Source: Escherichia phage 215Ecol030PP. From it: a stretch of 64,000 bases of DNA. Under the pieces are notes generated by a model. It searched no databases. It had not been told where the DNA came from and worked only from the letters and a program-made list of their open reading frames with translations. How positions within the stretch are numbered: the first letter of the stretch is position 1; every line of letters starts with the position of its first letter. A program made the translations under genes and the position numbers. The stretch is from sequence record PP328843.1, one strand, 5' to 3'. Positions 2,418-59,324 of the stretch are shown piece after piece.

Positions 2418-2447
2418 ATTATACCACATCCTTGTGGTAAAGTAAAC
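2418..2447 (-). promoter_or_regulatory. T4-type early promoter (sigma70-like, extended -10 TGgTATAAT, -35 GTTTAC) for rIIA.1-rIIA
   Basis: Minus strand reads GTTTAC-15nt-TGGTATAAT; plus-strand attata at 2418-2423 and gtaaac at 2442-2447; near-identical copy at 50188-50217. Confidence 0.55.
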
Positions 2448-2979
2448 TACTGGCTCATCCATTCTTTACGAAGGTCAGCGTTATCTCCCATGAGCATTTC
2501 AAAAAGCTCTTTCCAGTTCTCAGGAAGTTTAACAACATCATATACTGGGTTTTGAATCATCTCACGATATTCAGATTTTTCCAAAGAGCCAAGTCCCTTA
2601 ATATAACGGATGCTATGTTTAGGTAGAGTATCTTTAGCACTCTCATATTCAGCGACTGTATAAAACCATTTTTGAGTTTTGCCAATTTGTGCAATAATTA
2701 CAGGCGTTTTAACAAAGCGAATACGTCCTTGTTCAAACAATTCTGGCCAATTACTAAAAAATCCGAGCAGAGAAGGATAAATAGAACCTAATCCAATAAT
2801 CTCTTAATTATGAGGTATTTCTATGGATAGCCCGAAGGCTATCCATCGTGATCTGCGTCTGTCATAATAGCGACATTCGCATAGTTCATTGAAGAGGATT
2901 TAATAGAACGACGAACATTGTTCTGCAATTTATATTTTTTCATATCAACGCTAGAAGAATCAATTTTTACAAATTTCAT
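2447..2979 (-). CDS. 60: DNA topoisomerase II medium subunit gp60, 160 aa, translated with a 50-nt ribosomal bypass: join(2979..2842, 2791..2447) on minus strand
   Basis: N-terminal 46 codons MKFVKIDSSSVDMKKYKLQNNVRRSIKSSSMNYANVAIMTDADHDG end at GGA (2842-2844) followed by UAG (2839-2841); coding resumes after landing GGA (2792-2794) with LGSIYPSLLGFFSNWPELFEQGRIRF...; 46+114 codons = 160 aa. Confidence 0.9.
2792..2841 (-). other. 50-nt untranslated coding gap of gene 60 (programmed translational bypass / ribosome hopping element)
   Basis: Exactly 50 nt between take-off GGA and resume codon UUA, beginning UAG and ending with matching landing GGA; take-off hairpin GGAUAGCC-UUCG-GGCUAUCC spans 2825-2844. 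Confidence 0.9.
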
Positions 2980-3778
2980 TATACACCTCATAGAACTTTT
3001 CATCAGGAATCCAACCGCGTTTAAATTCATTAAATGCTCGGCCGAATAATTTTGAATTCACAGTTATATTATTAACTGATTTCCATTTAGCAACTCCTGT
3101 TCGTTTATAATGATCGGGGTCATATTTCGTGACGTACCATTCATATAAATTTGGTATTAATTTTACAGCCTCTGGATTTGTCGCTGATTTATTATACCAT
3201 GGTTTCGCTTTTTCAAGTTCAGCTGCTTTTGCAGTAGCAGCAACAGTATTTCCAATACCAACTAATTTTTCAGCTTTAATGCGTGGATCATTAACATGAA
3301 GACGAAAAACTTCGCCCTTTTCATTTTTAAAGCATGTCATGCCTTTAATTCCAGGAAGCTTAACACCTTTATTAACACCGCACCATTCCTTTGGGTTAAA
3401 TGATCCTTTAATTAATAAGGCGCATTTACCCGATTTAATACTTCTCATTAAAACTTTATCTTTCATAAAGTTTTTTGACCATTCAGATACTGCTCTTTGA
3501 TGGTAAATTCTAGCGATTTCATATAATTTACTAGAACGTAAATATTTTTCAGTGTTTAACATTCTATTCATCGCATATGCCATTTCACGATTACGATGAA
3601 TTTTATATAGTAGAAAATGTGCTAAAAAGTGTTCACGAAAAGTCAGTTTCACCAAATTTTCTTTATCATCAGAACCTCCCATTGATCTTGGAAGGATATG
3701 ATGAATTTCACCCTTAAATTTAGAAACGCGGGTTTTACCCCGCACTATTAAGTCATTATAGATTTTTTCGTAATTCAC
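2960..3778 (-). CDS. mobA: MobA HNH homing endonuclease, 272 aa, inserted between topoisomerase genes 39 and 60
   Basis: HNH motif HHILPRSMGGSDDKENLVKLTFREHFLAHF; N-terminus MNYEKIYN matches the MNY..IY N-termini of the two other Mob-type ORFs in the window; apparent GTG start at 3776-3778; 3' end overlaps gene 60 start by about 20 nt. Confidence 0.85.
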   Translation of the reverse strand: MNYEKIYNDLIVRGKTRVSKFKGEIHHILPRSMGGSDDKENLVKLTFREHFLAHFLLYKIHRNREMAYAMNRMLNTEKYLRSSKLYEIARIYHQRAVSEWSKNFMKDKVLMRSIKSGKCALLIKGSFNPKEWCGVNKGVKLPGIKGMTCFKNEKGEVFRLHVNDPRIKAEKLVGIGNTVAATAKAAELEKAKPWYNKSATNPEAVKLIPNLYEWYVTKYDPDHYKRTGVAKWKSVNNITVNSKLFGRAFNEFKRGWIPDEKFYEVYNEICKN

Positions 3779-5306
3779 CTACTGTTATCCATTTACCATT
3801 AATCTGTACTTCATCATTTTCATTTACGATAATTGTATCGCCATTTAGTTCGAAAGTAAACCACTCGCCATCTTCTTTTTCTTCAAACGCTTTTTCACCA
3901 AGAACTAATCCAGTGATTGCGCAAATATCAAACAGTTCTTTGTTTTTAAGCATATCAGCATATGACATACCCCAACTGTTGAGAACTTTACCACGCAATG
4001 GATAACCACCATGAAGTTCTTTATCACGAACATCAATAAGATATCCGATAGCCGAATCACCCTCAGTCAAGAAAAGAGTAGTGTCAGCATCTTTACCACA
4101 AAGATTCGCTTTAATATGTTTATGAACCTTAGCTTTAGAAGCCTTTTTAGCCGCTTTAGTTTCTGCTGCTTTTTCTGCCGCCAATTTACGAGCTAATGCT
4201 GCTTCAATAATCGGCATTAAAATTGCTTCATTATTTAGAATAGCACGTGAAATCTTTTTAGCATCAAGTTGAATATGACTACGGATTTCACCAAATGGAG
4301 AAGTCAAACGCTCTTTAGTTTGAGAATCAAATCGCATGTTTTTCATATCACGAACAAACATAACGATAGTCAAACATTCTTTGACACGCGCTTTAGTTAC
4401 ATCAATTTTGAATTTACGTTTGATTTGTGGAATAAGGTCTTCACAAATATCATCCATAACGCAGTCAATGTGATGGCCACCATTCTTAGTGTGAATGTTA
4501 TTCACATAAGTTAATTGACGAAAACCATCCGGTGAACGACCAACCGCAATAGAACAATTTTCTTGTTCTTGAACGATAGCATGTTCATCATACTGTCGTG
4601 CATATTTCTTAAAATTGCCCTGAACCTTTTTACCATTAAAGGTAAATTGAATATCAGGATAAACTACTGCAAGTGTCTGGAGACGATCCAGTGTAATGTC
4701 AAGATAAACTTGGGACAGCTCATTAGTTTCAAATGACATAAAATCTGGAATGAAAGTAACACGAGTTCCTTTCCATTTTCCAGGAATAGTTTCCCAGGAT
4801 TTATTTTCCATGCCATTTGAACAACGAACTACAATATTATTTTGACCATCGCCAGTTTCACCAACAAACATCACAGAAAAAATGTTTGTCAAACTAGAAC
4901 CAACACCATTCATACCGCCAGTGACGCGTTCTTTATCATCACCGAAGTTACCACCTGCTTTTGGAATAGTCCATGCAGCAACAGGACCAGGAATTTCTTC
5001 ACCGGTAGGTGTTTTAACCATCGCCTGTGGAATACCACGACCGTTATCTTCAACTGTTACTTGATTGTTTTTAATAGTAACATTAATTTTATTTGCGAAT
5101 TTAAACTTAGTACGAATACCTTCATCTACTGAGTTATCGATAATTTCATCAATAAGCTTAACAAGACCAGGTACATACTGAACACTTTCCCATTTACCAA
5201 ACAGAAAGCGCTCATGCATTTCATTAGCAGAAGAGCCAATGTACATGCCGCTACGCTTTTTGATATGTTCAATATCGCTCAGAATTTTAATTTCATTCTT
5301 AATCAT
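3756..5306 (-). CDS. 39: DNA topoisomerase II large (ATPase, GyrB-like) subunit gp39, 516 aa
   Basis: GHKL ATPase and Toprim-type motifs (EDNGRGIP, GGxNGVGSS); ATG at 5304-5306 (the ORF track starts one codon upstream at a GTG). Confidence 0.95.
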   Translation of the reverse strand: MIKNEIKILSDIEHIKKRSGMYIGSSANEMHERFLFGKWESVQYVPGLVKLIDEIIDNSVDEGIRTKFKFANKINVTIKNNQVTVEDNGRGIPQAMVKTPTGEEIPGPVAAWTIPKAGGNFGDDKERVTGGMNGVGSSLTNIFSVMFVGETGDGQNNIVVRCSNGMENKSWETIPGKWKGTRVTFIPDFMSFETNELSQVYLDITLDRLQTLAVVYPDIQFTFNGKKVQGNFKKYARQYDEHAIVQEQENCSIAVGRSPDGFRQLTYVNNIHTKNGGHHIDCVMDDICEDLIPQIKRKFKIDVTKARVKECLTIVMFVRDMKNMRFDSQTKERLTSPFGEIRSHIQLDAKKISRAILNNEAILMPIIEAALARKLAAEKAAETKAAKKASKAKVHKHIKANLCGKDADTTLFLTEGDSAIGYLIDVRDKELHGGYPLRGKVLNSWGMSYADMLKNKELFDICAITGLVLGEKAFEEKEDGEWFTFELNGDTIIVNENDEVQINGKWITVGELRKNL

Positions 5307-5350
5307 CACTTATCCTCGTTTGGTTTCGGGAATATTATACTCCGGTAATC

Positions 5351-5373
5351 ATAAAGCTAAAGGCCCGAAGGCC
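5351..5373 (-). terminator. intrinsic terminator-like hairpin GGCC-UUCG-GGCC followed by U-rich tract
   Basis: Plus strand ggcccgaaggcc at 5362-5373 directly downstream of the 39.1 stop codon on the minus strand. Confidence 0.45.
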
Positions 5374-5375
5374 TT

Positions 5376-5636
5376 TTATTTAAAACGAATAGTTGAATCC
5401 TTAAAGAACAGCCCAGAACATACTGTTCCTTCTACTTTCTGCCCGGTAGGTCCAATAGCACGAAATCCAGTATGTTGGAAATCATTTTCAGAGCAACCGA
5501 GCCAGTTATATCCAGTGATTTCAATATTAGTAAAACCGCTTGAAGACAAAACTTTGGTTGCATTATCAGCATCAGTACATCCTATTAAAGACACTGCTAA
5601 TACTAATGCTGCAATAGAACGATTAACATATTTCAT
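5376..5636 (-). CDS. putative lipoprotein (39.1 position), 86 aa
   Basis: Signal peptide with lipobox-like LIGC; ATG at 5634-5636. Confidence 0.6.
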   Translation of the reverse strand: MKYVNRSIAALVLAVSLIGCTDADNATKVLSSSGFTNIEITGYNWLGCSENDFQHTGFRAIGPTGQKVEGTVCSGLFFKDSTIRFK

Positions 5637-5638
5637 AA

Positions 5639-5815
5639 TTACCCTTTAAGCAAGTCGTAAAATCCGCCATTCACATGCTTAGGAGCGGAAACTAACCGAA
5701 TAGCAATCCGATGACAATCAGGACATACATCAGTATCCCTTTCAGAAATTTTCTTGATTTTTTCGTATTCTTTTGCGCAGTCTTTGGATTGGCATTTATA
5801 ATCATAAAGCGGCAT
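5639..5815 (-). CDS. small zinc-ribbon protein, 58 aa (below the ORF-track size cut-off)
   Basis: Own translation MPLYDYKCQSKDCAKEYEKIKKISERDTDVCPDCHRIAIRLVSAPKHVNGGFYDLLKG; CxxxxC...CxxC zinc-ribbon pattern; fills the gap between adjacent genes exactly. Confidence 0.55.
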   Translation of the reverse strand: MPLYDYKCQSKDCAKEYEKIKKISERDTDVCPDCHRIAIRLVSAPKHVNGGFYDLLKG

Positions 5816-5817
5816 AA

Positions 5818-6237
5818 TTATTCCTTAAAGTGAGCTTTCAACATCTGATACAAGGACCATGCTTGTTCATTATTTTCAATAGTAATTTTCATGACTGGGA
5901 ATTCTGTGAAATCTTCTATTTGTTCTTGCTCTTCCTGCTCTTGTTCTTCAGCTGCCTGGTATGGATTTTCAACTTCATTAAAGAACTCGGCTTCGTTGCT
6001 AGAAAGCCAGATAAAGTTTTCGTCAATGACTGTACCTCGTGATGAATATCCAACTGTGCCAGTAGATGTCACAATTTTAGTAGGACGCCCGTAATAGTCA
6101 ACATCTAAAATTTTAAAAGGTTCCATACCTAAACGGCGTGCATAGATTCCGTTATCAGTATGGTCTTTAATAAAATTTTCTTGAGCTTGTTTATTTTTAA
6201 ATTGATACCATTTATTAACTTCAAATTTAATAGCCAT
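5818..6237 (-). CDS. hypothetical acidic protein (GoF position in T4 gene order), 139 aa
   Basis: ORF in gene train; glutamate/glutamine-rich linker [10 protein letters not shown]; assignment by position only. Confidence 0.55.
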
Positions 6238-6452
6238 TAATAAATTTCCTTCCAGTAAGTTGTGCCATCTTCAGTAATTTCACGAAATACACCATAAATT
6301 GGCTGTTTATCGCCGACTTTCTCATACACATAAACAGAAGTCAAGTGAGTAAACTTGCTAGTATGTTCCTTTTGAACTACTACCAAATCTGGATCGAATA
6401 ATACATCTTCAAATTCGTCATTAGTGCAGTTCTGAACAATTTTACGTTTCAT
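6237..6452 (-). CDS. hypothetical protein (Cef position), 71 aa
   Basis: ORF in gene train; stop/start abuts the downstream gene. Confidence 0.5.
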
Positions 6453-6624
6453 TACAATTTCCTCATTAATTGAACATTGGAGCGATGCGTTTCAGAAGAG
6501 TATCAACACCTTTAGCGAATTTTCCATTTTATTCTCCAAGTTGTTTTCTATATCAGTAGTTGATATTGATATAGTACCATAATCAACTACTGATGTATAT
6601 AGTTTTATGAAAAAATTTTAAACT

Positions 6625-7122
6625 TTATGCACAGCGAGCTTTGCTATAGTGTTTAATCCAACTTTCAGGAATGACTTTGTATGTTCCTAAAAATACCGCG
6701 TTGTACAGCTTAACACCATCTTCTACCCACTGATCGGTAATGTATGCGCACATAGCACGAGTACGGTGTTTTTGAATAACCCCTTCCTCATCTTCAGTAA
6801 ATTCGAATTCATAAGGAGCAACGAACTTGATAGCTTGACCGAGTTTCCACTTAAAGTCTACACCTACATGCGAAGTATCAATCGTTTCAATTCCTTTAGC
6901 GGGAACAGCTTTCAAAAACGCAGATTCAAGAAATTTCGCGCGAACATAACCAAACTGAGGTTTAGACTTTCCATCTTTAGGAATGATACGCACTTTTACT
7001 TCAGAATCTTCATCTTTAACGCCGTGTTTAAGCTGAATGCTTACAATTTCGACCAATTTTCCTGCTGCTTTAGAGCGGGATTTATCAGATACACGAGCAA
7101 TTTCACCAATATTAATAATCAT
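6625..7122 (-). CDS. MotB-position protein, 165 aa; paralog of the next gene
   Basis: ATG at 7120-7122; C-terminal motif TDQWVEDGVKL shared with ORF 7199-7744. Confidence 0.6.
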   Translation of the reverse strand: MIINIGEIARVSDKSRSKAAGKLVEIVSIQLKHGVKDEDSEVKVRIIPKDGKSKPQFGYVRAKFLESAFLKAVPAKGIETIDTSHVGVDFKWKLGQAIKFVAPYEFEFTEDEEGVIQKHRTRAMCAYITDQWVEDGVKLYNAVFLGTYKVIPESWIKHYSKARCA

Positions 7123-7198
7123 AGTTATCTCTCACTTGTTAAAAAGATTTTATACTCCACGGGACCATTATACTCTGGTCCCAAGAGTTTGTAAACTA

Positions 7199-7744
7199 TT
7201 AATTCAAAATAGCTACCACTGCACTACGAGGTACTACACTAAAATCACCTGCATGAACAACGTTCAGAAGTTCAACGCCATCTTCAATCCACTGGTCTGT
7301 TACCCAACCACAGATAGGATTATCAAAAGGACGACGGATAGACACAGCAGCACACAACAGGTCTGTAGGGTCTTGTTCTTCAACTTCTTGGAACAGGATG
7401 AACTCATCTTCATAAACCAGGTTTTTCTTTATTTTGTTATTATCTAACCGGCGACCGTGGATGACGTAAGATTTGTCAAACCACTCACTTTTGGCAAATT
7501 CTTCAACAATAAATTCGCCTTCGCCAAAAACATCAGTCAGAGTTTTATGACCAGAAATCAAGGCATTAGTTTTAATTTTAGGTTCAACCAGTTTGTAGGT
7601 TTTGCCGATTTCAATAGCGGTAGTCATAGTAGGTTCCTTAATTTCCAGTGGTTTAACAGGGCATACATAAGTGCTTACAACATCAAAATCAATCAGTTTA
7701 GCTACCGGATTTGGTATGTATTCAGGATTATAATTAAATTTCAT
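7199..7744 (-). CDS. hypothetical protein, 181 aa, paralog of the preceding gene (shared C-terminal TDQW[IV]EDGV domain)
   Basis: C-terminus ICGWVTDQWIEDGVELLNVVHAGDFSVVP aligns with MCAYITDQWVEDGVKLYNAVFLGTYKVIP of ORF 6625-7122. Confidence 0.6.
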   Translation of the reverse strand: MKFNYNPEYIPNPVAKLIDFDVVSTYVCPVKPLEIKEPTMTTAIEIGKTYKLVEPKIKTNALISGHKTLTDVFGEGEFIVEEFAKSEWFDKSYVIHGRRLDNNKIKKNLVYEDEFILFQEVEEQDPTDLLCAAVSIRRPFDNPICGWVTDQWIEDGVELLNVVHAGDFSVVPRSAVVAILN

Positions 7745-7746
7745 AA

Positions 7747-8247
7747 TTATCTCATTTCAATAAAATCTATGAGTTCAGCATGCGATTTGCGGAACATTAC
7801 TTGGTGCCCGCCAATGATAACTTCATCTTCAGGAACTTCGTATACAGCGAGATAAAATCCTTTAGAAGATAATTCTTCCCGCTCTTCTCGTGTGAACCAT
7901 CTCATCATATCATATTCGCTAGCGAAAGCAAAATGATAAAGACCTATAAACCATCCTGGAATATGATATTCTACTCCAACATAATCTTTCTTGAACTTAG
8001 TATTAATTACTATATTAGCGTTTTTAACTAATAATTTATCTTCGTGTGGTAAAGGAATTCTTTTATTATTATCGCTATGATGCATAAAATTAGGTCTGTC
8101 ATAACCTACGTGTAATAGCCACTCTTCGCTCCATGAATCTATTATACTCCTGTACGGCGTTATTTGAACACAAAGATTTCGACGTATTGTTATAGCATCT
8201 TCATAATCAAGAATACTAAACGATGATTCAACACGATAAATTTTCAT
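7747..8247 (-). CDS. hypothetical protein, about 166 aa
   Basis: Track ORF 7747-8286; the promoter -10 lies inside the track N-terminus so the start is more likely the ATG at 8245-8247 with GAGGA SD. Confidence 0.55.
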   Translation of the reverse strand: MKIYRVESSFSILDYEDAITIRRNLCVQITPYRSIIDSWSEEWLLHVGYDRPNFMHHSDNNKRIPLPHEDKLLVKNANIVINTKFKKDYVGVEYHIPGWFIGLYHFAFASEYDMMRWFTREEREELSSKGFYLAVYEVPEDEVIIGGHQVMFRKSHAELIDFIEMR

Positions 8248-8269
8248 TTTATTATCCTCAGTAGCTATG

Positions 8270-8305
8270 GTGTTATAATACCACAACTAACCGAGGAAGT
8301 AAACA
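8270..8305 (-). promoter_or_regulatory. T4-type early promoter
   Basis: Plus-strand ttataata ... gtaaac (8300-8305) arrangement, i.e. GTTTAC -35 and TATAAT-like -10 on the minus strand. Confidence 0.45.
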
Positions 8306-8310
8306 ACTTT

Positions 8311-8994
8311 TTATCGTTTTGTTGGAAGAGACAAAGGATCGCATTCTTCCTCTGATGGAGCATCTTCAAGACCCATAGCATATCGCAAAGCATACTTCAT
8401 CATCAGGATGTCTTTCGCACAGTCATGAATAGAATTATGCGCAACGAATCCATCTAAAGTTCCTTTTGGAAGAGGACATGTGGTCATATCACGAACAAGC
8501 AGAAGTGCTTCAATTCTGGTACGAATATCACGCTGATTCCAAAATTTACAAGGTTCTAACTTAAATGTATCAAGCTCATTCTCAGAAACACCATTAAGAC
8601 GTTGAATATCGCGAATGAGATCGACTAAAATTGGAAAATCAAACGACATTCCACGGCACCAGCCTTGAGATTTCCAAGGATCGATATTATGCGCATTGAT
8701 GTAATCATTAAATTTTACAATACCATCGATAGTGCTTACATCTTCATCTGATGGTGCAATATTTTTTCGAGCTTCAGGGGATTGATTCTTCCACCATTCG
8801 ATAGTGCTTTTAGTAAAAAGACGATGTCCTTTTTGGCTTTTTAAATCAAATTTGATTTTAATGCCACGTGAAACTAATTCATCAAATGTTTCAACTACTT
8901 CTGGGTTAGGGTCAAAAGCAATTACAGCTAAATCAATAACAGCTGCTTTTTCGCCGCTTCCCATTGTTTCAAAATCTATAATAAAATCAAACAT
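8311..8994 (-). CDS. dexA: exonuclease A (DnaQ-like 3'-5' exonuclease), 227 aa
   Basis: DEDD exonuclease motifs (FIIDFETMG ... H..DC); size and position match T4 dexA. Confidence 0.88.
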   Translation of the reverse strand: MFDFIIDFETMGSGEKAAVIDLAVIAFDPNPEVVETFDELVSRGIKIKFDLKSQKGHRLFTKSTIEWWKNQSPEARKNIAPSDEDVSTIDGIVKFNDYINAHNIDPWKSQGWCRGMSFDFPILVDLIRDIQRLNGVSENELDTFKLEPCKFWNQRDIRTRIEALLLVRDMTTCPLPKGTLDGFVAHNSIHDCAKDILMMKYALRYAMGLEDAPSEEECDPLSLPTKR

Positions 8995-9269
8995 TAAATT
9001 TTCCTTGCTAAATCGCGAATTTGACCTACAGTATAGTCTTGAATATAAACTTTATTGATAGGCTCATCAATAAATTTTGCCACAGATTCAATATCTTTTT
9101 GTATTTCTTCAAGACTGTATACTATCTTTGAAGCTTTTTCGCGAATAGTAATATTTTCAGGACCTGGATTTTCTTCAATGACATCTTTAACACTTGTCAT
9201 AAGAGATTTAAACTGCCACCAACTTAATTCAATCATTAATAACCGCCTTATAAAGATAGCTAATTTCAC
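8994..9269 (-). CDS. hypothetical protein, 91 aa (start uncertain)
   Basis: ORF in gene train; overlaps next ORF at its 5' end so the true start is probably an internal Met. Confidence 0.5.
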   Translation of the reverse strand: MKLAIFIRRLLMIELSWWQFKSLMTSVKDVIEENPGPENITIREKASKIVYSLEEIQKDIESVAKFIDEPINKVYIQDYTVGQIRDLARKI

Positions 9270-9489
9270 CTAAAATGTAATCACTGATTGTAACAGTTTT
9301 TACTTCACCACAAAAGAATTCTAACGCAATCAAATCTCGTTCAATTTCTTCCAATTGAAGCATTAACTTGCCTGATTCAGTTTTCACATTTTTGCGATTT
9401 TTGCTATAAGCTATTTCATAAATTTCGCTTACTTTATCTTGAAGAAGATAAAACTGTTCTTTAGTTATTTCCACGAATAGCTTCCTCAA
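9229..9489 (-). CDS. hypothetical protein, 86 aa
   Basis: ORF in gene train. Confidence 0.5.
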   Translation of the reverse strand: MRKLFVEITKEQFYLLQDKVSEIYEIAYSKNRKNVKTESGKLMLQLEEIERDLIALEFFCGEVKTVTISDYILGEISYLYKAVIND

Positions 9490-9495
9490 ATTTAA

Positions 9496-10815
9496 TCATA
9501 CATAAAATACATCATAACGACCACGGGTAACACCAACATAAAGAAGTTGTTGAGCTAATTCAGCATCTGCATAATGAATACAAGGCGTATAAATGAAAGC
9601 ACGGTCTACAGACATACCCTGAGCTTTATGGAATGTTGATGCAGGAAGTGCTTTCACTTTACTGAACTGTGATTTAGCATCCCAAAAATCGCTCCATGGG
9701 GCTTTTCCGCCTTTATTCCAATTTTTATAAGTTTCTGCCGTTTTACCTAAAAATAAATTAAACTTATATAGCTCTTCATCAGATGAAATTATTTTAATCT
9801 TTTCACGATAATATTCATCATCGCCGTAAGTTTCTACTGTTAAATCCCAATGACGAATTAAGTATTCTCCAGAAACACCACGAGCTTTAACAAAGGTTGA
9901 TGTATACTCTGCTTCTATAATACGAACTAATTGTCCGTTATTAAAAATAATTTCTGACACAGGCTTTCCATCAATTTTATATGTTTTAATTAATGGTTCC
10001 TGCATTACAATAATTTCACCGACAATAAAATCTTTATCAGTTTCAAAAATCTTTTTACGAATAATGCTATTTAACTTATCAACAGATTTATTCGTAAATG
10101 CCATTACGCGATTTTCAAACAAATCATCTAGAGATTTGACGATTGAAAAATAATTTACCATAAAATCGCGTAAAGCGGTATCACCAGTAAATCCACGTAC
10201 TCCATGCCCGTCAACAACTTTATCATAAATCCACTTACCGTTACGAACGTCAGTAGCTACATCAATAATAGGAGCATTACTGCGTTTAACTTCAGTGAGT
10301 TCACACTGATAAAAATCTTTATGTGTAAAGAATGGACTGATATAAGCAGTATTTTCTCCTGGGTCAACAGGTCTAATTTGCTTATTATCACCTATTCCAA
10401 TTATAGTACACCACGGCGGGATAGTTGAAAGCAGAATTTTAAATAGCTTTCTATCATACATTGACACTTCGTCGCAGATTAATACCCTGCATTTAGCTAA
10501 ATCTGGTACTTCCTTCTGTTCAAAAAGAACATTTTCTTCATATGTTACTGGGTTAATTTTAAGAATACTATGAATAGTACTCGCTTCTTTCCCTGATAGT
10601 TTTGAAAGAATCTTTTTAGCTGCATGAGTAGGAGCTGCTAAAATAATACCAGTTTCACCCGTAGATATTAAAGCTTCAATGATGAACTTGGTAAGAGTAG
10701 TCTTACCAGTACCAGCAGGTCCATTAATAGTTACATGATGTTTCTTTTCTTTAATAGCCCTCATAACGATGTTAAAGGCATTTTTCTGGCCTTCGGTCAA
10801 ATCATCAAATGTCAT
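9496..10815 (-). CDS. dda: Dda DNA helicase (SF1B), 439 aa
   Basis: Walker A GPAGTGKTT; ATG at 10813-10815; size matches T4 Dda. Confidence 0.92.
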   Translation of the reverse strand: MTFDDLTEGQKNAFNIVMRAIKEKKHHVTINGPAGTGKTTLTKFIIEALISTGETGIILAAPTHAAKKILSKLSGKEASTIHSILKINPVTYEENVLFEQKEVPDLAKCRVLICDEVSMYDRKLFKILLSTIPPWCTIIGIGDNKQIRPVDPGENTAYISPFFTHKDFYQCELTEVKRSNAPIIDVATDVRNGKWIYDKVVDGHGVRGFTGDTALRDFMVNYFSIVKSLDDLFENRVMAFTNKSVDKLNSIIRKKIFETDKDFIVGEIIVMQEPLIKTYKIDGKPVSEIIFNNGQLVRIIEAEYTSTFVKARGVSGEYLIRHWDLTVETYGDDEYYREKIKIISSDEELYKFNLFLGKTAETYKNWNKGGKAPWSDFWDAKSQFSKVKALPASTFHKAQGMSVDRAFIYTPCIHYADAELAQQLLYVGVTRGRYDVFYV

Positions 10816-11123
10816 CGTAAATTCCCTGCAATTGGTATACTAACAATACGCCCAGTATCTAAAATTCGCTGATATAATCTTTGCGTGTCTACGTCAGGCT
10901 TAACATGTTTAACTTCTATTTTATTAAACCAAAATTTACGTGGAGTCTCAACTAATCTTGGAATTCCCTTACCTAAAGCTAGTCGATACTGCTCTTTAAG
11001 AGTAGTAAATACTTTATCAGCAATATTCCATTCAAAAAATACAGCAGGACGATGTTCATCAAGCGGAACTGGCGCCGTAAATCCGTCTTTGTCTCGGTAA
11101 ACTATCGCATATACATAAACCAT
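10812..11123 (-). CDS. hypothetical protein, 103 aa
   Basis: ATG at 11121-11123; ATGA overlap with dda start. Confidence 0.55.
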   Translation of the reverse strand: MVYVYAIVYRDKDGFTAPVPLDEHRPAVFFEWNIADKVFTTLKEQYRLALGKGIPRLVETPRKFWFNKIEVKHVKPDVDTQRLYQRILDTGRIVSIPIAGNLR

Positions 11124-11124
11124 A

Positions 11125-11871
11125 TTATCCTCGGATAAGTTTAAAAATTGAACAATTTAGCGGGTATCCTCTTTTCAGTTTAAGTTTATCAATAAAAGAC
11201 AAATTTTGATACCGCTCTACACCTTGAATAATTTTATCACACATATCATATTGCATTTCTGCTTCTGACAACTTTTTCACAGTTTTCCAATCCGAACCTT
11301 TAAGAAGAACGTTCAGTTTAACAACTTCAGCGCCTTCTGCTATGCGAGAACCATCAATACGTGCTTTAAGTGCTATAATCCTTAGCTTAATGTCAGAGGT
11401 CTGTTTTGATTTAGAAAGCTGAGAAATGTGTTCAATTCGGTTTTCACGTTTTTTCTGTATAGCTTTAATTTGATTATAAGTCTTTTTGATTTTAGCCCAT
11501 TTCTTTTCATCTAAATTTAGTTTATGAACTTTTTTCGCAGATGAACGACCAATTCGCAAAGCAAACAAATCACGCTTTTCAATCAACTCTTCTAAAGTAT
11601 AATCAGAACGAAATGTATTATACTTTTTCTTTACTGCAATAACATTCCCTTTAATGTATCCAACGTTATTATCAAAACGTTCTAATGATAATTTCTCTCC
11701 TTCAATACGATTATCAAAAGGTTCTCCCGAGTAAGCACAAACTTTCTGATCTAAAATGTTCTTAATGTAATTGAAGTCTAAGTTAAAATCTTTAGAACGT
11801 CTTTTTGCAGATGCCTGAGTATGCTCTAAACGACGTTTAATTTTACGAATTTGATTATTAGACAGTTTCAT
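11125..11871 (-). CDS. Srd-position basic protein, 248 aa
   Basis: Lys/Arg-rich ORF; assignment to T4 srd is by position and size only. Confidence 0.55.
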   Translation of the reverse strand: MKLSNNQIRKIKRRLEHTQASAKRRSKDFNLDFNYIKNILDQKVCAYSGEPFDNRIEGEKLSLERFDNNVGYIKGNVIAVKKKYNTFRSDYTLEELIEKRDLFALRIGRSSAKKVHKLNLDEKKWAKIKKTYNQIKAIQKKRENRIEHISQLSKSKQTSDIKLRIIALKARIDGSRIAEGAEVVKLNVLLKGSDWKTVKKLSEAEMQYDMCDKIIQGVERYQNLSFIDKLKLKRGYPLNCSIFKLIRG

Positions 11872-11994
11872 ATTTTTCTCACATCTTACGGACGGTTAAC
11901 TACTTATACTATAACATTTTTACCTTAACTTGTAAACAACTTTATGTAAAAATGCTTTAAAACTTTCATGGTATAATGAATCTAAGTCCTTCCA

Positions 11995-12597
11995 TTATAG
12001 ATTAAATCCTTCAAAATCAAGAGTATAGATAGTGTATGTTGAACACTTTTTATACTCATATCTATCTGCAATTCTAAATACACTTCCAGCTGGTATCATT
12101 ACTTCTTGTTCATCTGAAACTAATTCCATATTACGATAACGATGACTATCCGGAAACTTAAAGTTTGGATTGTATTCTTTACAGCGTAGAGCTTTTATAG
12201 CATACTCCTGGAAATTGAATACCATAGGAGCTTTGAATTCAAAAATAACTTGTGTGTTATACTCTAAACCGGAAGCAAAATGTAGAGCTATATTTTTATC
12301 ATATGAAGCTGATACGACTTTATCAAATGTAATAATATCAATTCCTTGATTTAACACCTGCTTAGTCTCAGCTGGAACACCTCTCCAAAGAGGTTTATCG
12401 TTTGGTTCCAAACGAGATTTGATTATTTCATTTAACCAAGTATGGTCATCTGGTTTATTAGTAATACAATGAATTAAAAGTTCAATTTCAGATAAATTAA
12501 ACCCTTCAGAAAGTAATTCTTCACGAATAGAAGCACGCACCGATGCATCCATTGATTTTATTTTAAAATCTTTTAGTTGCATTACTGAGTATTTCAT
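11995..12597 (-). CDS. modA: ADP-ribosyltransferase ModA, 200 aa
   Basis: Size and position match T4 ModA; paralogous to the adjacent upstream gene. Confidence 0.7.
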   Translation of the reverse strand: MKYSVMQLKDFKIKSMDASVRASIREELLSEGFNLSEIELLIHCITNKPDDHTWLNEIIKSRLEPNDKPLWRGVPAETKQVLNQGIDIITFDKVVSASYDKNIALHFASGLEYNTQVIFEFKAPMVFNFQEYAIKALRCKEYNPNFKFPDSHRYRNMELVSDEQEVMIPAGSVFRIADRYEYKKCSTYTIYTLDFEGFNL

Positions 12598-13217: not shown

Positions 13218-13284
13218 GATAGCCTCCATATACTTCAGAAGCTATCATATCATCGTTAGAAAGGAAAGTAAACAACTTTTTGAA

Positions 13285-13467
13285 TTATTTTGCCCAGGGA
13301 GCCCAAGGCGGAGGGTCAAGATGGTATGAAGCTAGTTCTTCTAGAAGAGCATCTGGGGCTTCAATTCCATAATTCTGTAATACTATACGGTACTCTTTCT
13401 TATAATCACTAGAATCATTCTGGTTATTCGTAGAATGATTATCTTCTAACATCTCAAATAAATCCAT
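13285..13467 (-). CDS. hypothetical protein, 60 aa
   Basis: ORF in gene train. Confidence 0.5.
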   Translation of the reverse strand: MDLFEMLEDNHSTNNQNDSSDYKKEYRIVLQNYGIEAPDALLEELASYHLDPPPWAPWAK

Positions 13468-13475
13468 ATTAATTC

Positions 13476-15319: not shown

Positions 15320-15380
15320 AGCGCTCTCCTCTATAAGATAATTCTATTATACCATACTCATTTTGGAAAGTAAACTGCAA

Positions 15381-15409: not shown

Positions 15410-15417
15410 TTGAATTA

Positions 15418-49235: not shown

Positions 49236-50158
49236 TTCAATACCTCAATAGCATTACGTAAACCATTTGCTTTTGCATTAAGAGCTTTTAACAATTTGGT
49301 GTGTTCTGCAATTTGGGCTTCAACTTCAATCAAACGAGCATTGAGATATTCGCGTTCTTCACTCAGATTATCAACCTTTTCTACTTTAGGTTCTTTTACA
49401 ACTGGCTTATACGTATTAGGGTTCTTCAGTTTAATTAGAATGCGTGAACTGTATAACATTGAACCATTATCTTCGGTTTCGTCATACATTTCTACTACGT
49501 CCATAATTTTTAACATCATGCGAAGTTTATAAGACAACGAACGAATAGTTTTGTTGTGCTTATTAATTTCTCTAGCTGTCATGGTGCCGAGATTACGTGA
49601 GTAATAATAAGGAACCTGGATATTAATTAATACTGATGAACCACCTGGCTTGTGTGTTACTTCATCAGCAATAACCCAGTCCTTAACATGAACTGTATTT
49701 GTACGGTCATCACCCGCGGTAAACAGTTTGCGAGCATGCTTAAAAAGCATATTCACTTGGGTATTGAATTGACAAGCAAATTTATCAGCAAATTTAGTTT
49801 CAGGAATGGTAGATAACCAATCAGCCAAATGGGTCTTTTTAACATCGTTAACAATAGTAAATTCAACCAAATCGGTTATAGATGTCTCAGATTTAATAAA
49901 GCTCGGCTTCATAAAGTTTTCAATGTTATCACGAGCTACAGTAGAAGATAACATACGAGAACGTTTAAACCATTCAAGCAAATTGCCTAACGAATGAGAA
50001 TAAGCGTTTTGAGTATCTTTACAGATATGATTTTCCTGGCCAACATATTGAAGGAAATCACGAAGAATATTATTAATTACTGCTCTGTGTCCGATCTGAT
50101 AATTGCGGTGTTTAGTAATAAGACTGTCAAAATAATCAATATAATGTTTACGAGTCAT
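49232..50158 (-). CDS. hypothetical protein with C-terminal coiled coil, about 308 aa
   Basis: Probable ATG at 50156-50158 with GAGGAG SD (the track start at 50209 would lie inside the promoter). Confidence 0.55.
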   Translation of the reverse strand: MTRKHYIDYFDSLITKHRNYQIGHRAVINNILRDFLQYVGQENHICKDTQNAYSHSLGNLLEWFKRSRMLSSTVARDNIENFMKPSFIKSETSITDLVEFTIVNDVKKTHLADWLSTIPETKFADKFACQFNTQVNMLFKHARKLFTAGDDRTNTVHVKDWVIADEVTHKPGGSSVLINIQVPYYYSRNLGTMTAREINKHNKTIRSLSYKLRMMLKIMDVVEMYDETEDNGSMLYSSRILIKLKNPNTYKPVVKEPKVEKVDNLSEEREYLNARLIEVEAQIAEHTKLLKALNAKANGLRNAIEVLK

Positions 50159-50187
50159 ATTAATCTCCTCAGTAGAAAGTAAGAACA

Positions 50188-50217
50188 TTATACCACATCC
50201 TTGTGGCAAAGTAAACT
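50188..50217 (-). promoter_or_regulatory. T4-type early promoter, 31/32 nt identical to the rIIA.1 promoter
   Basis: attataccacatccttgtggcaaagtaaacta versus 2418-2449 attataccacatccttgtggtaaagtaaacta. Confidence 0.55.
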
Positions 50218-51238
50218 AGTTCAGTGCATTTAGTGCGTTGTTCAGTTTAGAACGTTGCTTCGTAAGATTTTTGACTTTTTCTTGAGCTTTTTCCAGCATC
50301 TTTTCAGCTTCTAGCACTTCATTGGTCGCTTTAACGAGTTCATCATCTACTGCCTTAAGAGACTTCTCAATCGCATCCGCGTGCCATTTTTCAACAGGTT
50401 TAAGACTCGGATTTTCAATAGGAAGAAAATTCACTTTATTGAATTTCCATGCATCTTTATTACCTGAGCTATACATCCAAAATTTAGGATCGTTTGATGA
50501 GCAATTAGATAAATTTAAGTTATCTTGCACTTCCTGCTTTTTCTCTTGCGGGACTTCATCCTTTCTCAAAAAATCGTATTTAAATGAAACGATCATATCA
50601 AGTTCATACGTTGTTGTATGTTCCCAATTTCGCTCAAAATGAGGTAAAATCTTAGACTGAACAGCGGCAACAACATCCATATACTTAAATGCTTCTGTCA
50701 ACTGTGATTTAAGGCATTCACAAATTGAAAGAGAATTTTTTGTATTAGGTTTAAAGCTAATTCGTGCAGTTCTATTATTTTCTTTTAATGGTCTTACTTC
50801 CATCTGAAGAGTATAACCATCAAATTTCAGGTTCTTTAAGTTAATGTCAGAACCTTTTAATCGACTAGCCGTCGACAAAATTTGCTTTAATTGTTTACGG
50901 AATAGAGCAATAAATCTCCATTCAATACGATAATGATTTGGATTGAAAAATCCAGATGATAAATCGACCTTACTTTGACCAACGCCTTGAACAATCAAAG
51001 GATTTTTATAATCAATAGTTTTACAGAAATCGGTGAGCTGCTCACGAGCAGTCATTTGCGTAATATACCCTGCTTTATTAAAATTACGCACCCATTCACT
51101 GCTATTCTTATACTTAAAGTGATGAATAGTACGATTAACTTTATCAAGGTCTAAATTATTTTCACACAAAAATGTCATAACATCACGAGTATCGCTGGCA
51201 TTACGAACCATATCTTCAATTTGAGAACGAGTTTTCAT
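50216..51238 (-). CDS. hypothetical protein with C-terminal coiled coil, 340 aa
   Basis: ORF in gene train. Confidence 0.55.
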   Translation of the reverse strand: MKTRSQIEDMVRNASDTRDVMTFLCENNLDLDKVNRTIHHFKYKNSSEWVRNFNKAGYITQMTAREQLTDFCKTIDYKNPLIVQGVGQSKVDLSSGFFNPNHYRIEWRFIALFRKQLKQILSTASRLKGSDINLKNLKFDGYTLQMEVRPLKENNRTARISFKPNTKNSLSICECLKSQLTEAFKYMDVVAAVQSKILPHFERNWEHTTTYELDMIVSFKYDFLRKDEVPQEKKQEVQDNLNLSNCSSNDPKFWMYSSGNKDAWKFNKVNFLPIENPSLKPVEKWHADAIEKSLKAVDDELVKATNEVLEAEKMLEKAQEKVKNLTKQRSKLNNALNALN

Positions 51239-53132: not shown

Positions 53133-53151
53133 TTTCTGTTCCTCCGTAGTT

Positions 53152-53190
53152 GATAGTTGTATAGTACCACAAAGGAACAGTCTTGTAAAC
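53152..53190 (-). promoter_or_regulatory. T4-type early promoter (gatagttgtatagtacca family)
   Basis: 18-mer at 53152-53169, gtaaac at 53185-53190. Confidence 0.5.
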
Positions 53191-53596: not shown

Positions 53597-54583
53597 TTAT
53601 TTCAGAAGAGTAACCTCAGCAATTTCTTCCCAACCGTTTTTGTCGGTCATAATAAAGTCAGCAAGATAAAGTGCAGTACGCAGTGAAACATTGCGTAAAC
53701 GGTTAACATTGACTTTCATCCATGATAATGCTTTATAAGTTTCTTCATCAGAAAGACCGCGCTTTTGCATCATGTCGGTTGAAAGAATAACATCTTCAAC
53801 CCTGACCATAATTTCTTCATTAGTGTGAACACCCAAATCTAAATAAACTGAGCGGGACACTAATGCTTGTAAATGTGGAGCGAGTTTAGTACCACGGTCT
53901 AATTCGCGGTCAATATCAACGTTTGTGATAAAAACAATCGTTCCTTTAAATTCAAACTCACGCTCAATGCCTTTTTCTTCTAAGTAAGAAGATGCAGTGC
54001 TCCAGCAGACTTTACGGGTCTCTCCAGTGTCCAGAGCAGCTTTCAGAAGATTAAGAATGTCCATATCAGAGAAAACATCCACATCATCAATCAAAAGGAC
54101 AGAATTCTCTTCACGATTATTCCAAAGCTGCTCATAAAGACCGATACCGGAGATTTTACCATTAATGCTTTTATACTCAATGTATCCAATATCATTTGCT
54201 TTATTCAAAGCTTTATCTAAAGAATACGTTTTACCAATACCTGCCGCACCAGAGATAATTAATGAACGAATGTTTCCGTTAATAATACCATTCGTCATCA
54301 TTCCCATAACATTAAATCTTTTATTAATGCGGGTTTTCATATCTTCATATGATTCTTTAACTTCTTCAACTTTTACACCATCATATGAAATGTCTGATTT
54401 GTAAACCCAAACACCGCGACGCTTACCGTCAATTTCAACAAAAACTTTACCATCTCCTTGTGCATCTACCGGAGCATTATCTGGGAACCATTCACCTAAG
54501 AGCTCAAAAGTTCCAGAGATTTCTTTACCGAAGTAGATACCCTTATTGATAGTTACAGTTTTCATTTTATTCTCCAATTTCAC
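53597..54583 (-). CDS. P-loop NTPase (AAA-like ATPase), 328 aa
   Basis: Walker A GAAGIGKT and Walker B LLIDDVD. Confidence 0.6.
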   Translation of the reverse strand: MKLENKMKTVTINKGIYFGKEISGTFELLGEWFPDNAPVDAQGDGKVFVEIDGKRRGVWVYKSDISYDGVKVEEVKESYEDMKTRINKRFNVMGMMTNGIINGNIRSLIISGAAGIGKTYSLDKALNKANDIGYIEYKSINGKISGIGLYEQLWNNREENSVLLIDDVDVFSDMDILNLLKAALDTGETRKVCWSTASSYLEEKGIEREFEFKGTIVFITNVDIDRELDRGTKLAPHLQALVSRSVYLDLGVHTNEEIMVRVEDVILSTDMMQKRGLSDEETYKALSWMKVNVNRLRNVSLRTALYLADFIMTDKNGWEEIAEVTLLK

Positions 54584-54634
54584 ATTTGTTTTGATAGGGT
54601 AATAGTATCACACTACTACCCTTCTGTAAACAAT

Positions 54635-54898
54635 TTATTTTAACGTTCGCCAAATTTTTACTGCTTCACGGCGAGATACTTCTACAGCTCCAAGTTCTAC
54701 AGCTTTTTGGCGTCGGCGAGCGTGTAAGTCATAATGTTTAATGCGTTTATCTTGAAACCAAGAACGTTTCATTCCTATTGCTTCTGCCATTTCATGAAGC
54801 TCTTCAATATCTCCATCAGTGAACATATGACAATTTTTAGTTGGATGACCGCGAAGTTTCCATCCATGATTCATTAAAACATCTACGTAAACTGTCAT
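54635..54898 (-). CDS. hypothetical protein, 87 aa
   Basis: ORF in gene train. Confidence 0.5.
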   Translation of the reverse strand: MTVYVDVLMNHGWKLRGHPTKNCHMFTDGDIEELHEMAEAIGMKRSWFQDKRIKHYDLHARRRQKAVELGAVEVSRREAVKIWRTLK

Positions 54899-55044
54899 TG
54901 ATTCTTCTCCAAATAAGTTTCGATAATTTTCTGGGCGAGATAAACCGCGTTATCTTCAGTTGCGTCTTCTAAGAAACTTTCAAAACACTCTGAAATTTCT
55001 TCTGTGTCAATCAACTTTTTTACTTCAATTGGTGTAATTTTCAT
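54895..55044 (-). CDS. small acidic protein, 49 aa (not in ORF track)
   Basis: Own translation MKITPIEVKKLIDTEEISECFESFLEDATEDNAVYLAQKIIETYLEKNQ; ATGA overlap with downstream gene; early promoter upstream at 55063-55101. Confidence 0.4.
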   Translation of the reverse strand: MKITPIEVKKLIDTEEISECFESFLEDATEDNAVYLAQKIIETYLEKNQ

Positions 55045-55168
55045 TTTGTTTTTCCGTTTAAGTGTTTGTTTTGATAGTTGTATAGTACCATAAAGCTTTA
55101 TGCTTGTAAACTGTTTTGTGAAAAATTTTTGAAATAAAAAAAGGGACCTCTAAGGCCCCTTTATGCTT

Positions 55169-55654
55169 TTATTCCATTTCTATTATATGCATGTTCTTTT
55201 TGCTATCAAAATATATGTTTTTAACTGTTAACTCCGAATTAATTGGCAATAAAAACTCTCTTTCATAATCTACCATACAAAGGTTATCATAAAGCTTGTT
55301 AAGCTTATCATCGTCAGTTTGGCCAGATTCTTCAACTGCGATTAAATTTTCTAAAATGTCAATCATAGCAGTCGAATAGTCAAAAACGTTTGCATTTTTT
55401 AACACTACTAAAACATTAGTCATATAGCGTTCTGCAGCAAACGTTTCAGCTATATGAGACTCACTGCTAAAGGAAGTTATTCTTTTAAATTTGATTCTCC
55501 TATTAACTTCAAACTTATAAGATAGTACTTCCTCTATTGTAAGTCCTCTAAAAAGCACGTCTTTAATCTCAAGTTTGTCTTTAATGTAATCATTAACACG
55601 CTTATGATTAAAATCATTAATTTTGTTGCCAAGGCATTGCATTAAAATATGCAT
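55169..55654 (-). CDS. hypothetical protein, 161 aa
   Basis: ORF in gene train. Confidence 0.5.
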   Translation of the reverse strand: MHILMQCLGNKINDFNHKRVNDYIKDKLEIKDVLFRGLTIEEVLSYKFEVNRRIKFKRITSFSSESHIAETFAAERYMTNVLVVLKNANVFDYSTAMIDILENLIAVEESGQTDDDKLNKLYDNLCMVDYEREFLLPINSELTVKNIYFDSKKNMHIIEME

Positions 55655-55750
55655 TGTATTCTCCTCAATTTTTAAAGAGCAATTAATTAACTACACGTAT
55701 ATTATAATATGCTTTGCGGCAGAAGTAAACAACTTTGTGACGTCATTTTA

Positions 55751-58338: not shown

Positions 58339-58505
58339 AATTACATACTCCTTTGAATAATATCAATAATGTTGTTCACCAGATTATAAGTAAACATTGG
58401 ATAATTATATTGAATCATCACATACACAACAAACAAAACTTTCATTCTCTTCTCCTTGGCAGTTGACAAGATTACTATATCATAATCTTGTCAACTTGTA
58501 AACCA

Positions 58506-58679
58506 TTAAATGACGTTTTCAATAAAATTCTGAAGCTTTGTGTGAGCATCAACCATGATTTTCATTTCTTCTTTGGCGAAAGCTGTACCTCTTTCCCGAG
58601 AAGAACACTCATAGTCAGAAACTGCATTAGCATATTCTTCAATTAGTTTCATTAAAAACATCTGCTTTTCAGTTTTCAT
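58506..58679 (-). CDS. small hypothetical protein, 57 aa (not in ORF track)
   Basis: Own translation MKTEKQMFLMKLIEEYANAVSDYECSSRERGTAFAKEEMKIMVDAHTKLQNFIENVI; SD AGGUGGA; ATGA overlap with upstream ORF. Confidence 0.4.
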   Translation of the reverse strand: MKTEKQMFLMKLIEEYANAVSDYECSSRERGTAFAKEEMKIMVDAHTKLQNFIENVI

Positions 58680-58863
58680 TGTTCCACCTAATCATTTCAA
58701 GATATTGAACTAACTTAGCTTTAGATTTATCCAAATCCTTTTTAGCTGCTTCTATACCATCGTATGAATATCCTTCACAATGCTCAACTGCTAATTGATA
58801 TGAATCTATTTCAATATCACGTGCTAATTTAATGATTTTTTCAAACTGTTCACGTGTTAGCAT
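58669..58863 (-). CDS. hypothetical protein, 64 aa
   Basis: ORF in gene train. Confidence 0.5.
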   Translation of the reverse strand: MLTREQFEKIIKLARDIEIDSYQLAVEHCEGYSYDGIEAAKKDLDKSKAKLVQYLEMIRWNNEN

Positions 58864-58865
58864 AA

Positions 58866-59105
58866 TTAAACTCTCGTATTATGATCGATAATTTCATCAA
58901 GAAACATATCTAACGCTTCTAAAGCATTATCAACTTTAGCTTCAAATTTTTCAATACCTTTATTTGCAATGCCTGCCGAAAACCAAGCAAAGTCACTAAG
59001 TTCCTCATCTGCTTTACGAATTGAAGCCACTAATTCCTTGATTTTATCCGCTTGTTCGATACTAATCATTATTCCACCACATATGAAAGAGAGAACATTG
59101 CACAC
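58866..59105 (-). CDS. hypothetical protein, 79 aa
   Basis: ORF in gene train. Confidence 0.5.
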
Positions 59106-59302
59106 GCCATATGAGTTGCAGCTTCATCACACATATCATAACGTTTCTTAAGAAGTTCTACAAGTTCTTCACTAGTAACTTCATCCATGTCGACGAAAAA
59201 ATCACCATTAATGATGACGTAGATATTTCCTTCTTGATTAAGTGCTTCAATTTTCATGATGTTCTCCTCTTTATCCGATAGTTGTATAGTACCACAGCTC
59301 AA
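59069..59302 (-). CDS. hypothetical protein, 77 aa (start uncertain)
   Basis: ORF in gene train. Confidence 0.45.
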
Positions 59303-59324
59303 ACGGAAAGTAAACCGGTAAAAT

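Follow-up and report, generated by a model that had tools for sequence, protein, structure and literature searches.

Inverted repeats that enclose the −10 element of a promoter could act on the promoter DNA or on RNA that is read across it, and the early promoters of Escherichia phage 215Ecol030PP pose this choice. In a 64,000-nucleotide stretch of its genome (PP328843.1; this whole stretch is called the window below), an earlier note made from the letters alone had described recurring early promoters, several with the −10 region inside perfect inverted repeats, and had proposed a structural or regulatory role for the repeat arms. The nested repeats are real, highly non-random and conserved. 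Their role probably lies at the level of RNA, as hairpins that form specifically in transcripts reading through the promoter from upstream.

A pattern search of the window (−35 GTTTAC(A/T), a spacer of 17 ± 1 nt, an extended −10 TGnTAnnnT and an A/T-rich tract upstream) finds about 20 T4-type early promoter sites, all on the minus strand and most of them intergenic, with a stop codon on one side and the Shine-Dalgarno (SD) sequence and ATG of the following gene on the other. Eighteen of the 20 have counterparts in T4 (the exceptions are 55701 and 54602). Judged by these motifs, the earlier promoter assignment is right, and the sites belong to the sigma-70 early class of a T4-type phage. The regB promoter is termed a typical early promoter in the literature (PMC3014915); the T4 GenBank record, inspected for annotated promoters and terminators, contains none. 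The set of 20 includes site 42092, which lies within coding sequence and is doubtful, and site 40788, which is probably a MotA-box or middle-type promoter; since both were retained, the statistics given below are conservative.

Four nested repeats had been listed in the earlier note, at the cef, motB, dmd and mobD.2 promoters (Table 1). All four are also present in T4 and share one construction. The spacer is 17 nt long and is occupied by the upstream arm, the loop carries TGnTAnnn, and the downstream arm is made up of the last −10 base or bases, the discriminator and the first transcribed bases; the −10 hexamer sits either within the loop or where the downstream arm begins. A repeat search returns the 13-bp arms within 6552–6594 and the 9-bp arms at 20678–20703 just as they had been described. 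The 7-bp repeat is real but was placed 1 nt off (7161–7182, not 7160–7181), and the repeat reported with 12-bp arms at 58463–58494 has perfect arms of 14 bp that span 58461–58496. That the arm sequences differ is correct in general but not for the dmd and mobD.2 hairpins, which are paralogous (ACAAGAyTA...TArTCTTGT) and have homologous arms with one compensatory C-G to T-A difference. Two repeats were absent from the list: a hairpin upstream of nrdC.10, whose arms (TAGGGTA/TACCCTA) also flank the −10 of the cef promoter in Dhakavirus, and a weak one at the 40788 promoter. For the palindromic TTGACA at 58463, a role in a divergent plus-strand promoter was ruled out, as there is no −10 at the right spacing.

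A perfect repeat of at least 7 bp encloses the −10 at 8 of the 20 promoters, compared with 5.6% of 1595 control sites (the other TAnnnT on the promoter strand). For repeats of at least 9 bp the figures are 3/20 and 1.1%, and for at least 12 bp 2/20 and 0%. Nine hairpins have z-scores of −4.1 to −8.0, and in 200 shuffles no fold of equal stability arose. Of the 15 60-nt segments of the 64-kb strand with the most stable folds, five are promoter hairpins; the four listed ones rank 1, 5, 7 and 12 among its 2132 60-nt segments, beside obvious terminators. An origin by chance, or by inheritance from a duplicated ancestral promoter that was palindromic by accident, is hardly credible. It would suit the paralogy of the dmd and mobD.2 hairpins, and A/T-rich DNA often gives short repeats, as the control sites with 7 bp or more illustrate. 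However, perfect arms of 13 and 14 bp stand against controls in which no repeat reaches 12 bp, the shuffles do not reproduce the folds, and compensatory changes, unrelated arms at different promoters and replication in another genus also speak against it.

Pairing is specific to each promoter and has been maintained by selection. The spacers score −11.9 kcal/mol against their own downstream region and −7.2 kcal/mol against the regions of the other 19 promoters (permutation p = 2e-5), and for eight promoters the own partner ranks first in both directions. Applied to nine promoters of an unannotated Mosigvirus, this test gives p = 0.007; a 40-kb stretch of Gaprivervirus TH44 holds a single promoter by the strict pattern, hence the test was not replicated there. 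MotB- and Dmd-anchored protein scans of viral and metagenome contigs yielded 5–10 loci each, and sequence diversity was taken from the phage collection. Among nine distinct Tequatrovirus, Gaprivervirus and Dhakavirus sequences, all 63 cells of the 7-bp motB stem are paired, with both sides changed in four of the seven pairs (GGGACCA/TGGTCCC, GGGGTCA/TGACCCC, AGAGCCA/TGGCTCT); when the partner is slid by 1–3 columns, pairing falls to 28.6–50.8%. At the cef promoter the enclosing repeats have unrelated arms in different genera (ATCAGTAGTTGAT in T4-type phages, TAGGGTA in Dhakavirus, GGTCTAT in Mosigvirus), and in Gaprivervirus the same position carries GATAGGG/CCCTATC without an obvious promoter.

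The changes also point to a strand. Where one side of a Watson–Crick pair has changed in relatives, the result is G·U in 10 cases and A·C in 2 (binomial p ~0.02), one of the two A·C cases stemming from an old partial T4 record; if pairs that are already G·U in the window are included, the count is 18 versus 2. T2 and UFV05 illustrate this: within the mobD.2 hairpin, the upstream arm has two A>G changes, each opposite U and giving G·U. For the same 60-nt segments, the difference between sense and antisense fold energy is −3.8 kcal/mol at the promoters versus a background of −1.4 kcal/mol (p = 0.005).

Taken together, the data speak for a structure formed by a single strand of the transcribed sense, for which RNA would be the simplest candidate; they agree poorly with a symmetric cruciform in DNA or with a protein site that is palindromic. 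It is decidedly unlikely that the repeats act on promoter DNA, whether by tuning initiation as a cruciform or other structural element or by serving as an operator to which a phage shut-off protein binds. The arms do flank the −10 and could influence its melting, perfect palindromes are typical of operators, and the mechanism of T4 early-promoter shut-off is still called unknown (PMC2988021, PMC3014915). However, the arms vary by promoter and by genus while pairing persists, which argues against a sequence-specific protein, and a sense-strand G·U is a C·A mismatch on the other strand that breaks a symmetric cruciform. Moreover, the downstream arm is the SD in many promoters, 20–30 nt from the −10, and the feature is confined to about half of the promoters. 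The structural or regulatory role proposed earlier therefore survives as a selected structure, evident from covariation and promoter-specific complementarity, but not as regulation of initiation at promoter DNA, which is disfavoured by the sense-strand G·U changes, by the better folding of sense over antisense and by the upstream arm never being part of the promoter's own transcript.

If transcription is assumed to start at the seventh base after the −10, the upstream arm lies upstream of +1 at every nested hairpin, so that the hairpin can form only in read-through RNA. RNA that begins at +1 is nearly free of structure: across the 20 promoters it folds at 0 to −6.7 kcal/mol, and 16 are no lower than −2.2 kcal/mol. 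For RNA that spans the promoter the range is −3.7 to −26.7 kcal/mol. The mean unpaired probability of the segment from SD to AUG is 0.51 in the long form versus 0.71 in the short (Wilcoxon p = 0.002).

In four promoters, those of regB, nrdC.8, motB.2 and modB, the partner of the upstream arm is the gene's own SD region (Table 1): the SD or AUG is paired in the long RNA, and the 5′ arm lies upstream of the start. At regB, nrdC.8 and motB.2 the upstream arm is in the spacer; at modB it is formed by the −10 and discriminator. The motB.2 orthologues of RB69 and IME08 have perfect anti-SD/SD repeats of 13 and 11 bp, respectively, with differing extensions, and the modB design also occurs in a Mosigvirus.

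The nested hairpins are complementary in their distribution to ordinary terminators. Six of the 20 promoters have a G+C-rich hairpin followed by a T-run 16–89 nt upstream of the −35; several of these terminators are of the CUUCGG type, and the T-run merges into the A/T-rich upstream element. These six lack notable nested structure. Their mean minimum free energy is −7.3 kcal/mol, equal to background, versus −15.9 kcal/mol for the 14 without an upstream terminator (p = 0.005). In the motB, dmd and mobD.2 promoters, the −35 has the upstream stop codon at most 3 nt away, which leaves no space for a separate terminator. This arrangement suggests that the nested hairpin may serve read-through RNA as a terminator hairpin does elsewhere.

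Two other candidates were rejected: a canonical (Rho-independent) terminator, ruled out for the four listed hairpins by the absence of U-tracts, and an RNase III substrate, set aside since stems of 13–15 bp are too short for this enzyme. Elsewhere in the window, canonical terminators, several with C(UUCG)G loops, stand 16–30 nt upstream of a −35 (15390–15411, and before the −10s at 59286, 55701 and 55082), with T-runs that extend into the A/T-rich element belonging to the following promoter, giving compact terminator–promoter junctions. The nested hairpins occur at promoters without such an upstream terminator, which suggests an equivalent job, but they are A/U-rich, have no U-tract and overlap the promoter rather than precede it.

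The proposed mechanism can be outlined as follows. One arm would lie in promoter positions that are least read by polymerase (the spacer, or the −10 and discriminator) and its partner in the discriminator, the first transcribed bases or the SD region. The promoter's own mRNA, without the upstream arm, would be almost unstructured. Polymerase arriving from an upstream promoter would read through the internal promoter and copy both arms into a hairpin of −16 to −24 kcal/mol, which would mark and insulate the read-through RNA at each internal promoter. At regB, nrdC.8, motB.2 and modB, the ribosome-binding site would be buried in this RNA, and the genes would be translated mainly from their own promoter or when ribosomes of the upstream gene transiently open the stem. 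At cef, motB, dmd and mobD.2 the SD would remain free, and the hairpin would act as an attenuator or a 3′-end or processing hairpin in place of an ordinary terminator. By analogy, a barrier of this kind between transcription units is the most likely role of these four; it is suggested by the complementarity with terminators and by a published reporter experiment on a related stem-loop described below. The existence of read-through RNA at each site, and the effect of the hairpin on it, we infer.

A wider proposal can be put forward only tentatively: most internal T4-type early promoters may double as RNA switches, with positions not read by polymerase, namely the spacer (including the conserved CTTTCC or TTCTCC block that follows the −35) and the discriminator, selected as an anti-5′ untranslated region (UTR) or anti-SD strand. 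If so, each gene would be expressed differently from its own promoter and from read-through RNA, part of the extra consensus seen in T4 early promoters would serve as a signal in RNA and not as a contact for polymerase, and shut-off of the early promoters would silence genes translationally while read-through RNA persists.

Several points count against an RNA-level, read-through-specific function. The position of +1 rests on the assumption of 7 nt after the −10. Pairing that tolerates G·T is also compatible with a hairpin in the non-template DNA strand. The complementarity with terminators is a post hoc observation on 20 promoters, of which about six are without notable structure. In the four listed hairpins the SD stays accessible by fold prediction, and translational masking does not apply to them. 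No U-run follows any of these four, whose tails are AUAGAAAACA, GCCAAGGAGA, AAAUGAGGAG and AUAAAAUCUU, and a terminator scan of positions 1–20000 calls neither 6552–6594 nor 7161–7182; efficient intrinsic termination is therefore doubtful.

The architecture itself is already published as the promoter-early stem-loop (PeSL) cassettes (Arbiol et al. 2010, PMC2839356; Comeau et al. 2014, PMC4122927), and the finding is in this respect real and largely known. In phages RB49 and phi1, PeSL stem-loops lie mostly in the −35 to −10 interval or over the −10; one PeSL stem lowered expression of downstream lacZ as rrnB T1 does and was read as a terminator or attenuator, and the cassettes were also viewed as recombination sites that shuffle gene cassettes (PMC2839356). 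PeSLs were later extended to the T4/PST pair, with the consensus TTTACW-N17-TAYWAT and variable stems, and to nt-1/KVP40, where middle-promoter versions also occur (PMC4122927). Mini-circles, arising when adjacent cassettes recombine, count among the traits by which PeSLs are recognised. The window shares with them the repeated series of an intergenic A/T-rich tract, a sigma-70-type early promoter, a stem-loop and the SD and ATG of the next gene, as well as the conservation of tens of bases among the copies and the association with insertions and deletions between close relatives. It differs in that the stems of RB49 and phi1 are G-run/C-run, whereas those of the window are mostly A/U-rich and have no U-run, and in that a figure legend for PST/T4 puts the stem-loops just upstream of the promoter, whereas here they are nested (PMC4122927). 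The published accounts are silent on pairing of a promoter with its own SD and on covariation of the G·U type.

A second precedent is the T4 genes e, soc, 49 and I-TevI, in which a promoter lies within the 5′ arm of an SD-masking hairpin; long upstream transcripts are poorly translated, whereas transcripts from the embedded promoter, which are without the 5′ arm, are translated (PMC3014915). The regB, nrdC.8, motB.2 and modB promoters have, by fold prediction, the same geometry. Unlike the embedded promoters of the window, which are early and sigma-70, those of e, soc, 49 and I-TevI are late promoters (TATAAATA) with delayed expression, and the four listed hairpins differ further in leaving the SD uncovered. 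In the limited literature accessible, no published statement was found of this design with early promoters.

Phage N4 offers a third comparison. At its early promoters an extruded DNA hairpin, conserved in stem and loop, is the recognition element for the virion RNA polymerase, and inverted repeats are thus integral to early phage promoters there as here. The promoters of the window differ from those of N4 in having an ordinary −35 and −10 for the host sigma-70 holoenzyme, variable arms and evidence that points to RNA.

Relative to these systems, what the present analysis adds is support for the stems being selected as strand-specific, RNA-type structures that lie outside the promoter's own mRNA and in several cases bury a ribosome-binding site. 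A descriptive motif thereby becomes a model open to test, in which tightly spaced early genes of one orientation may be insulated from read-through. It bears on two open points in T4, the unexplained extra consensus positions of its early promoters and the shut-off of early expression, whose mechanism is not understood (PMC2988021, PMC3014915). In the engineering of T4-like phages, a promoter moved without its partner arm would be expected to alter the behaviour of read-through RNA.

Changes in the genome are also associated with the promoters. The whole window is co-linear with positions 1–66000 of T4 (loci L001 and L002) apart from 14 breaks, and 6 of the 28 break edges (4 of the 14 breaks) fall within 60 nt of a promoter, where 3.8% would be expected (p = 5e-4). 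A 1.17-kb insertion relative to T4 (54577–55745), with three small open reading frames (ORFs) between nrdC.11 and nrdC.10, is bounded by promoters 54602 and 55701. The 1.04-kb nrdC.4 segment of T4 is lost at 50139–50155, and the adjoining promoter 50187 stands at the edge of this 1042-bp deletion. Smaller insertions of ~250 bp with extra ORFs adjoin promoters 27649 and 40788. It could be argued from these breaks, and from promoter modules that are near-identical over 18–32 nt, that the repeats have no function in expression and are recombination signals or by-products of the shuffling of promoter cassettes, a role in modular exchange proposed in the PeSL papers (PMC2839356, PMC4122927). As the whole explanation this is unlikely. 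Homologous exchange needs a conserved promoter and 5′ UTR and does not depend on arms that are particular to one promoter; it is these arms that vary, and they do so in a covarying way; and the sense-strand G·U pattern and the pairing with the own SD would be left unexplained. A role in recombination and the preferred role in read-through RNA are not mutually exclusive.

Table 1. Promoter hairpins, SD-pairing promoters and promoter copies of the window, with predicted RNA folds
Feature	Position	Strand	−10 hexamer	Arms or paired segments	Fold (kcal/mol)	z	Remarks
cef-side promoter hairpin (downstream of motB, upstream of cef)	6552–6594	−	TACTAT, 6571–6576	13 bp, ATCAGTAGTTGAT/ATCAACTACTGAT	−20.2	−5.97	Downstream arm begins at ~+1; identical in T4 and 13 related loci
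motB promoter hairpin	7154–7188	−	TATAAT, 7167–7172	Core GGGACCA/TGGTCCC, 7161–7167/7176–7182	−19.7	−4.94	G·U-containing pairs lengthen the stem
dmd promoter hairpin	20673–20708	−	TATAGT, 20686–20691	Perfect 9-bp core, 20678–20686/20695–20703; 15 pairs counting G·U	−18.9	−5.86	Directly after gene 41 stop codon; variants in L012 and T4 stay paired via G·U/G-C
mobD.2 promoter hairpin	58461–58496	−	TATAGT, 58474–58479	Perfect 14 bp, AGTTGACAAGATTA/TAATCTTGTCAACT, 58461–58474/58483–58496	−20.2	−7.95	Most stable 60-nt fold of the window strand
Hairpin around −10, promoter upstream of nrdC.10	54593–54624	−		AGGGTAGTAGTG.../...TACTATTACCCT	−15.9	−4.67	
Weak repeat at 40788 promoter	40775–40809					−1.1	Not significant
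regB promoter	63456–63502	−	Starts at 63479	Spacer TTTTCCTCTTGACTG with 5′ UTR and SD region CAGTTAAGAGGAGAA	−21.6	−6.63	−10 and +1 enclosed; SD to AUG unpaired 0.20 in read-through vs 0.71 in own transcript
nrdC.8 promoter	53136–53180	−	Starts at 53161	Spacer CTGTTCCTTTGTGG with SD-containing CTACGGAGGAACAG	−20.5	−5.62	
motB.2 promoter	8255–8297	−	Starts at 8275	Spacer TTCCTCGGTTAGTTGTGG with SD-containing CCATAGCTACTGAGGA	−23.7	−7.35	T4 map ~8.1–8.2 kb
modB promoter	13210–13253	−	Starts at 13244	−10 and discriminator TGATAGCTTC with SD and start codon GGAGGCTATCA	−16.5	−4.11	SD to AUG unpaired 0.05 in read-through vs 0.59 in own transcript
Early promoter copy A, upstream of rIIA.1	2418–2449	−					Spacer hairpin CCACAaggaTGTGG at 2424–2437
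Early promoter copy B	50187–50218	−					31/32 identical to copy A; same spacer hairpin, 50193–50206
18-mer TGGTACTATACAACTATC (extended −10 and start region), copy 1/4	27640–27657	−					
18-mer, copy 2/4	53152–53169	−					
18-mer, copy 3/4	55073–55090	−					Canonical terminator ahead of promoter; without nested hairpin
18-mer, copy 4/4	59277–59294	−					CUUCGG-hairpin terminator ahead of promoter

The near-identical promoter copies reported before are present with small corrections of position. The 18-mer GATAGTTGTATAGTACCA does occur four times (none is expected from 100 shuffles), at 27640, 53152, 55073 and 59277; the third copy had been given as 55063, a typing error. The two 32-nt copies are identical at 31 of 32 positions as stated, with the second at 50187–50218 rather than 50188–50219. 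Both carry the same small hairpin in the spacer. Promoter-spacer hairpins are also seen in RB69 (locus L025, 884–950 and 1446–1504; AACCAaggaTGGTT and CATCCaaggacGGATG), and these share an AAGGA-type loop with the CCACAaggaTGTGG hairpins while the arms differ; in such small spacer hairpins the SD-like loop is conserved and the stems are variable.

The window is the early-gene region of a Tequatrovirus, corresponding to ~0–63.5 kb of the T4 map. Its first 20 kb are ~96% identical to T4 and many Tequatrovirus genomes, with 97% of the length matched, and the match to T4 begins at T4 position 12, inside rIIA. The G+C content is 32–36%, and the GC skew on the plus strand is negative throughout. The genes on the minus strand are rIIA, 60, 39, cef, motB, dexA, dda, modA/B, soc, 56, 61, dmd, 41, uvsX, 42, 43, 45, 46, 47, 55, nrdD, nrdC, mobD, rI, tk and regB.

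Traces of exchange are visible around motB and cef. After the cef-side promoter comes a strong SD-ATG, GGAGAATAAAATG (~6492–6527, minus strand), which in this phage, as in T4, opens an ORF of only 11 codons. The GGAGAATAAAATG start runs on into a different, longer sequence in loci L003 and L017, and the site resembles a scar left by a gene cassette that was lost or exchanged. In SP18-like phages (loci L008, L023 and L027) the position of the cef promoter, downstream of motB, has a GATAGGG...CCCTATC hairpin and then CAATGAGGAG, with no recognisable −35 or −10; it may be a degraded cassette that retains the stem-loop alone, like the described 'half' PeSLs. The ORF upstream of motB (7199–7744, motB.1 position; loci L003–L009) matches MotB residues ~116–154 over its last 30–40 residues with 41–50% identity, so the neighbouring genes share a domain. 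MotB of the window phage is ~88% identical to that of T4 and 99% to those of RB32 and ZCEC14, an unevenness that indicates mosaicism.

Immediately after the motB-promoter hairpin, at the start of the motB leader (7149–7158, minus strand), stands GGAG(T/A)ATAAA, which is kept in Tequatro-, Gapriver- and Dhakavirus. The real motB SD is ~30 nt further on, and the element could represent either a GGAG site of the RegB type or an SD that is vestigial. Another inverted repeat, of 9 bp and upstream of gene 46, AGAGATTAT/ATAATCTCT (33860–33895, minus strand), surrounds a MotA-box-like ATGCTTTAA. Its downstream arm overlaps TATAAT, its 60-nt fold of −19.3 kcal/mol is among the most stable of the window, and it resembles a middle promoter nested in a hairpin ('PmSL'-like).

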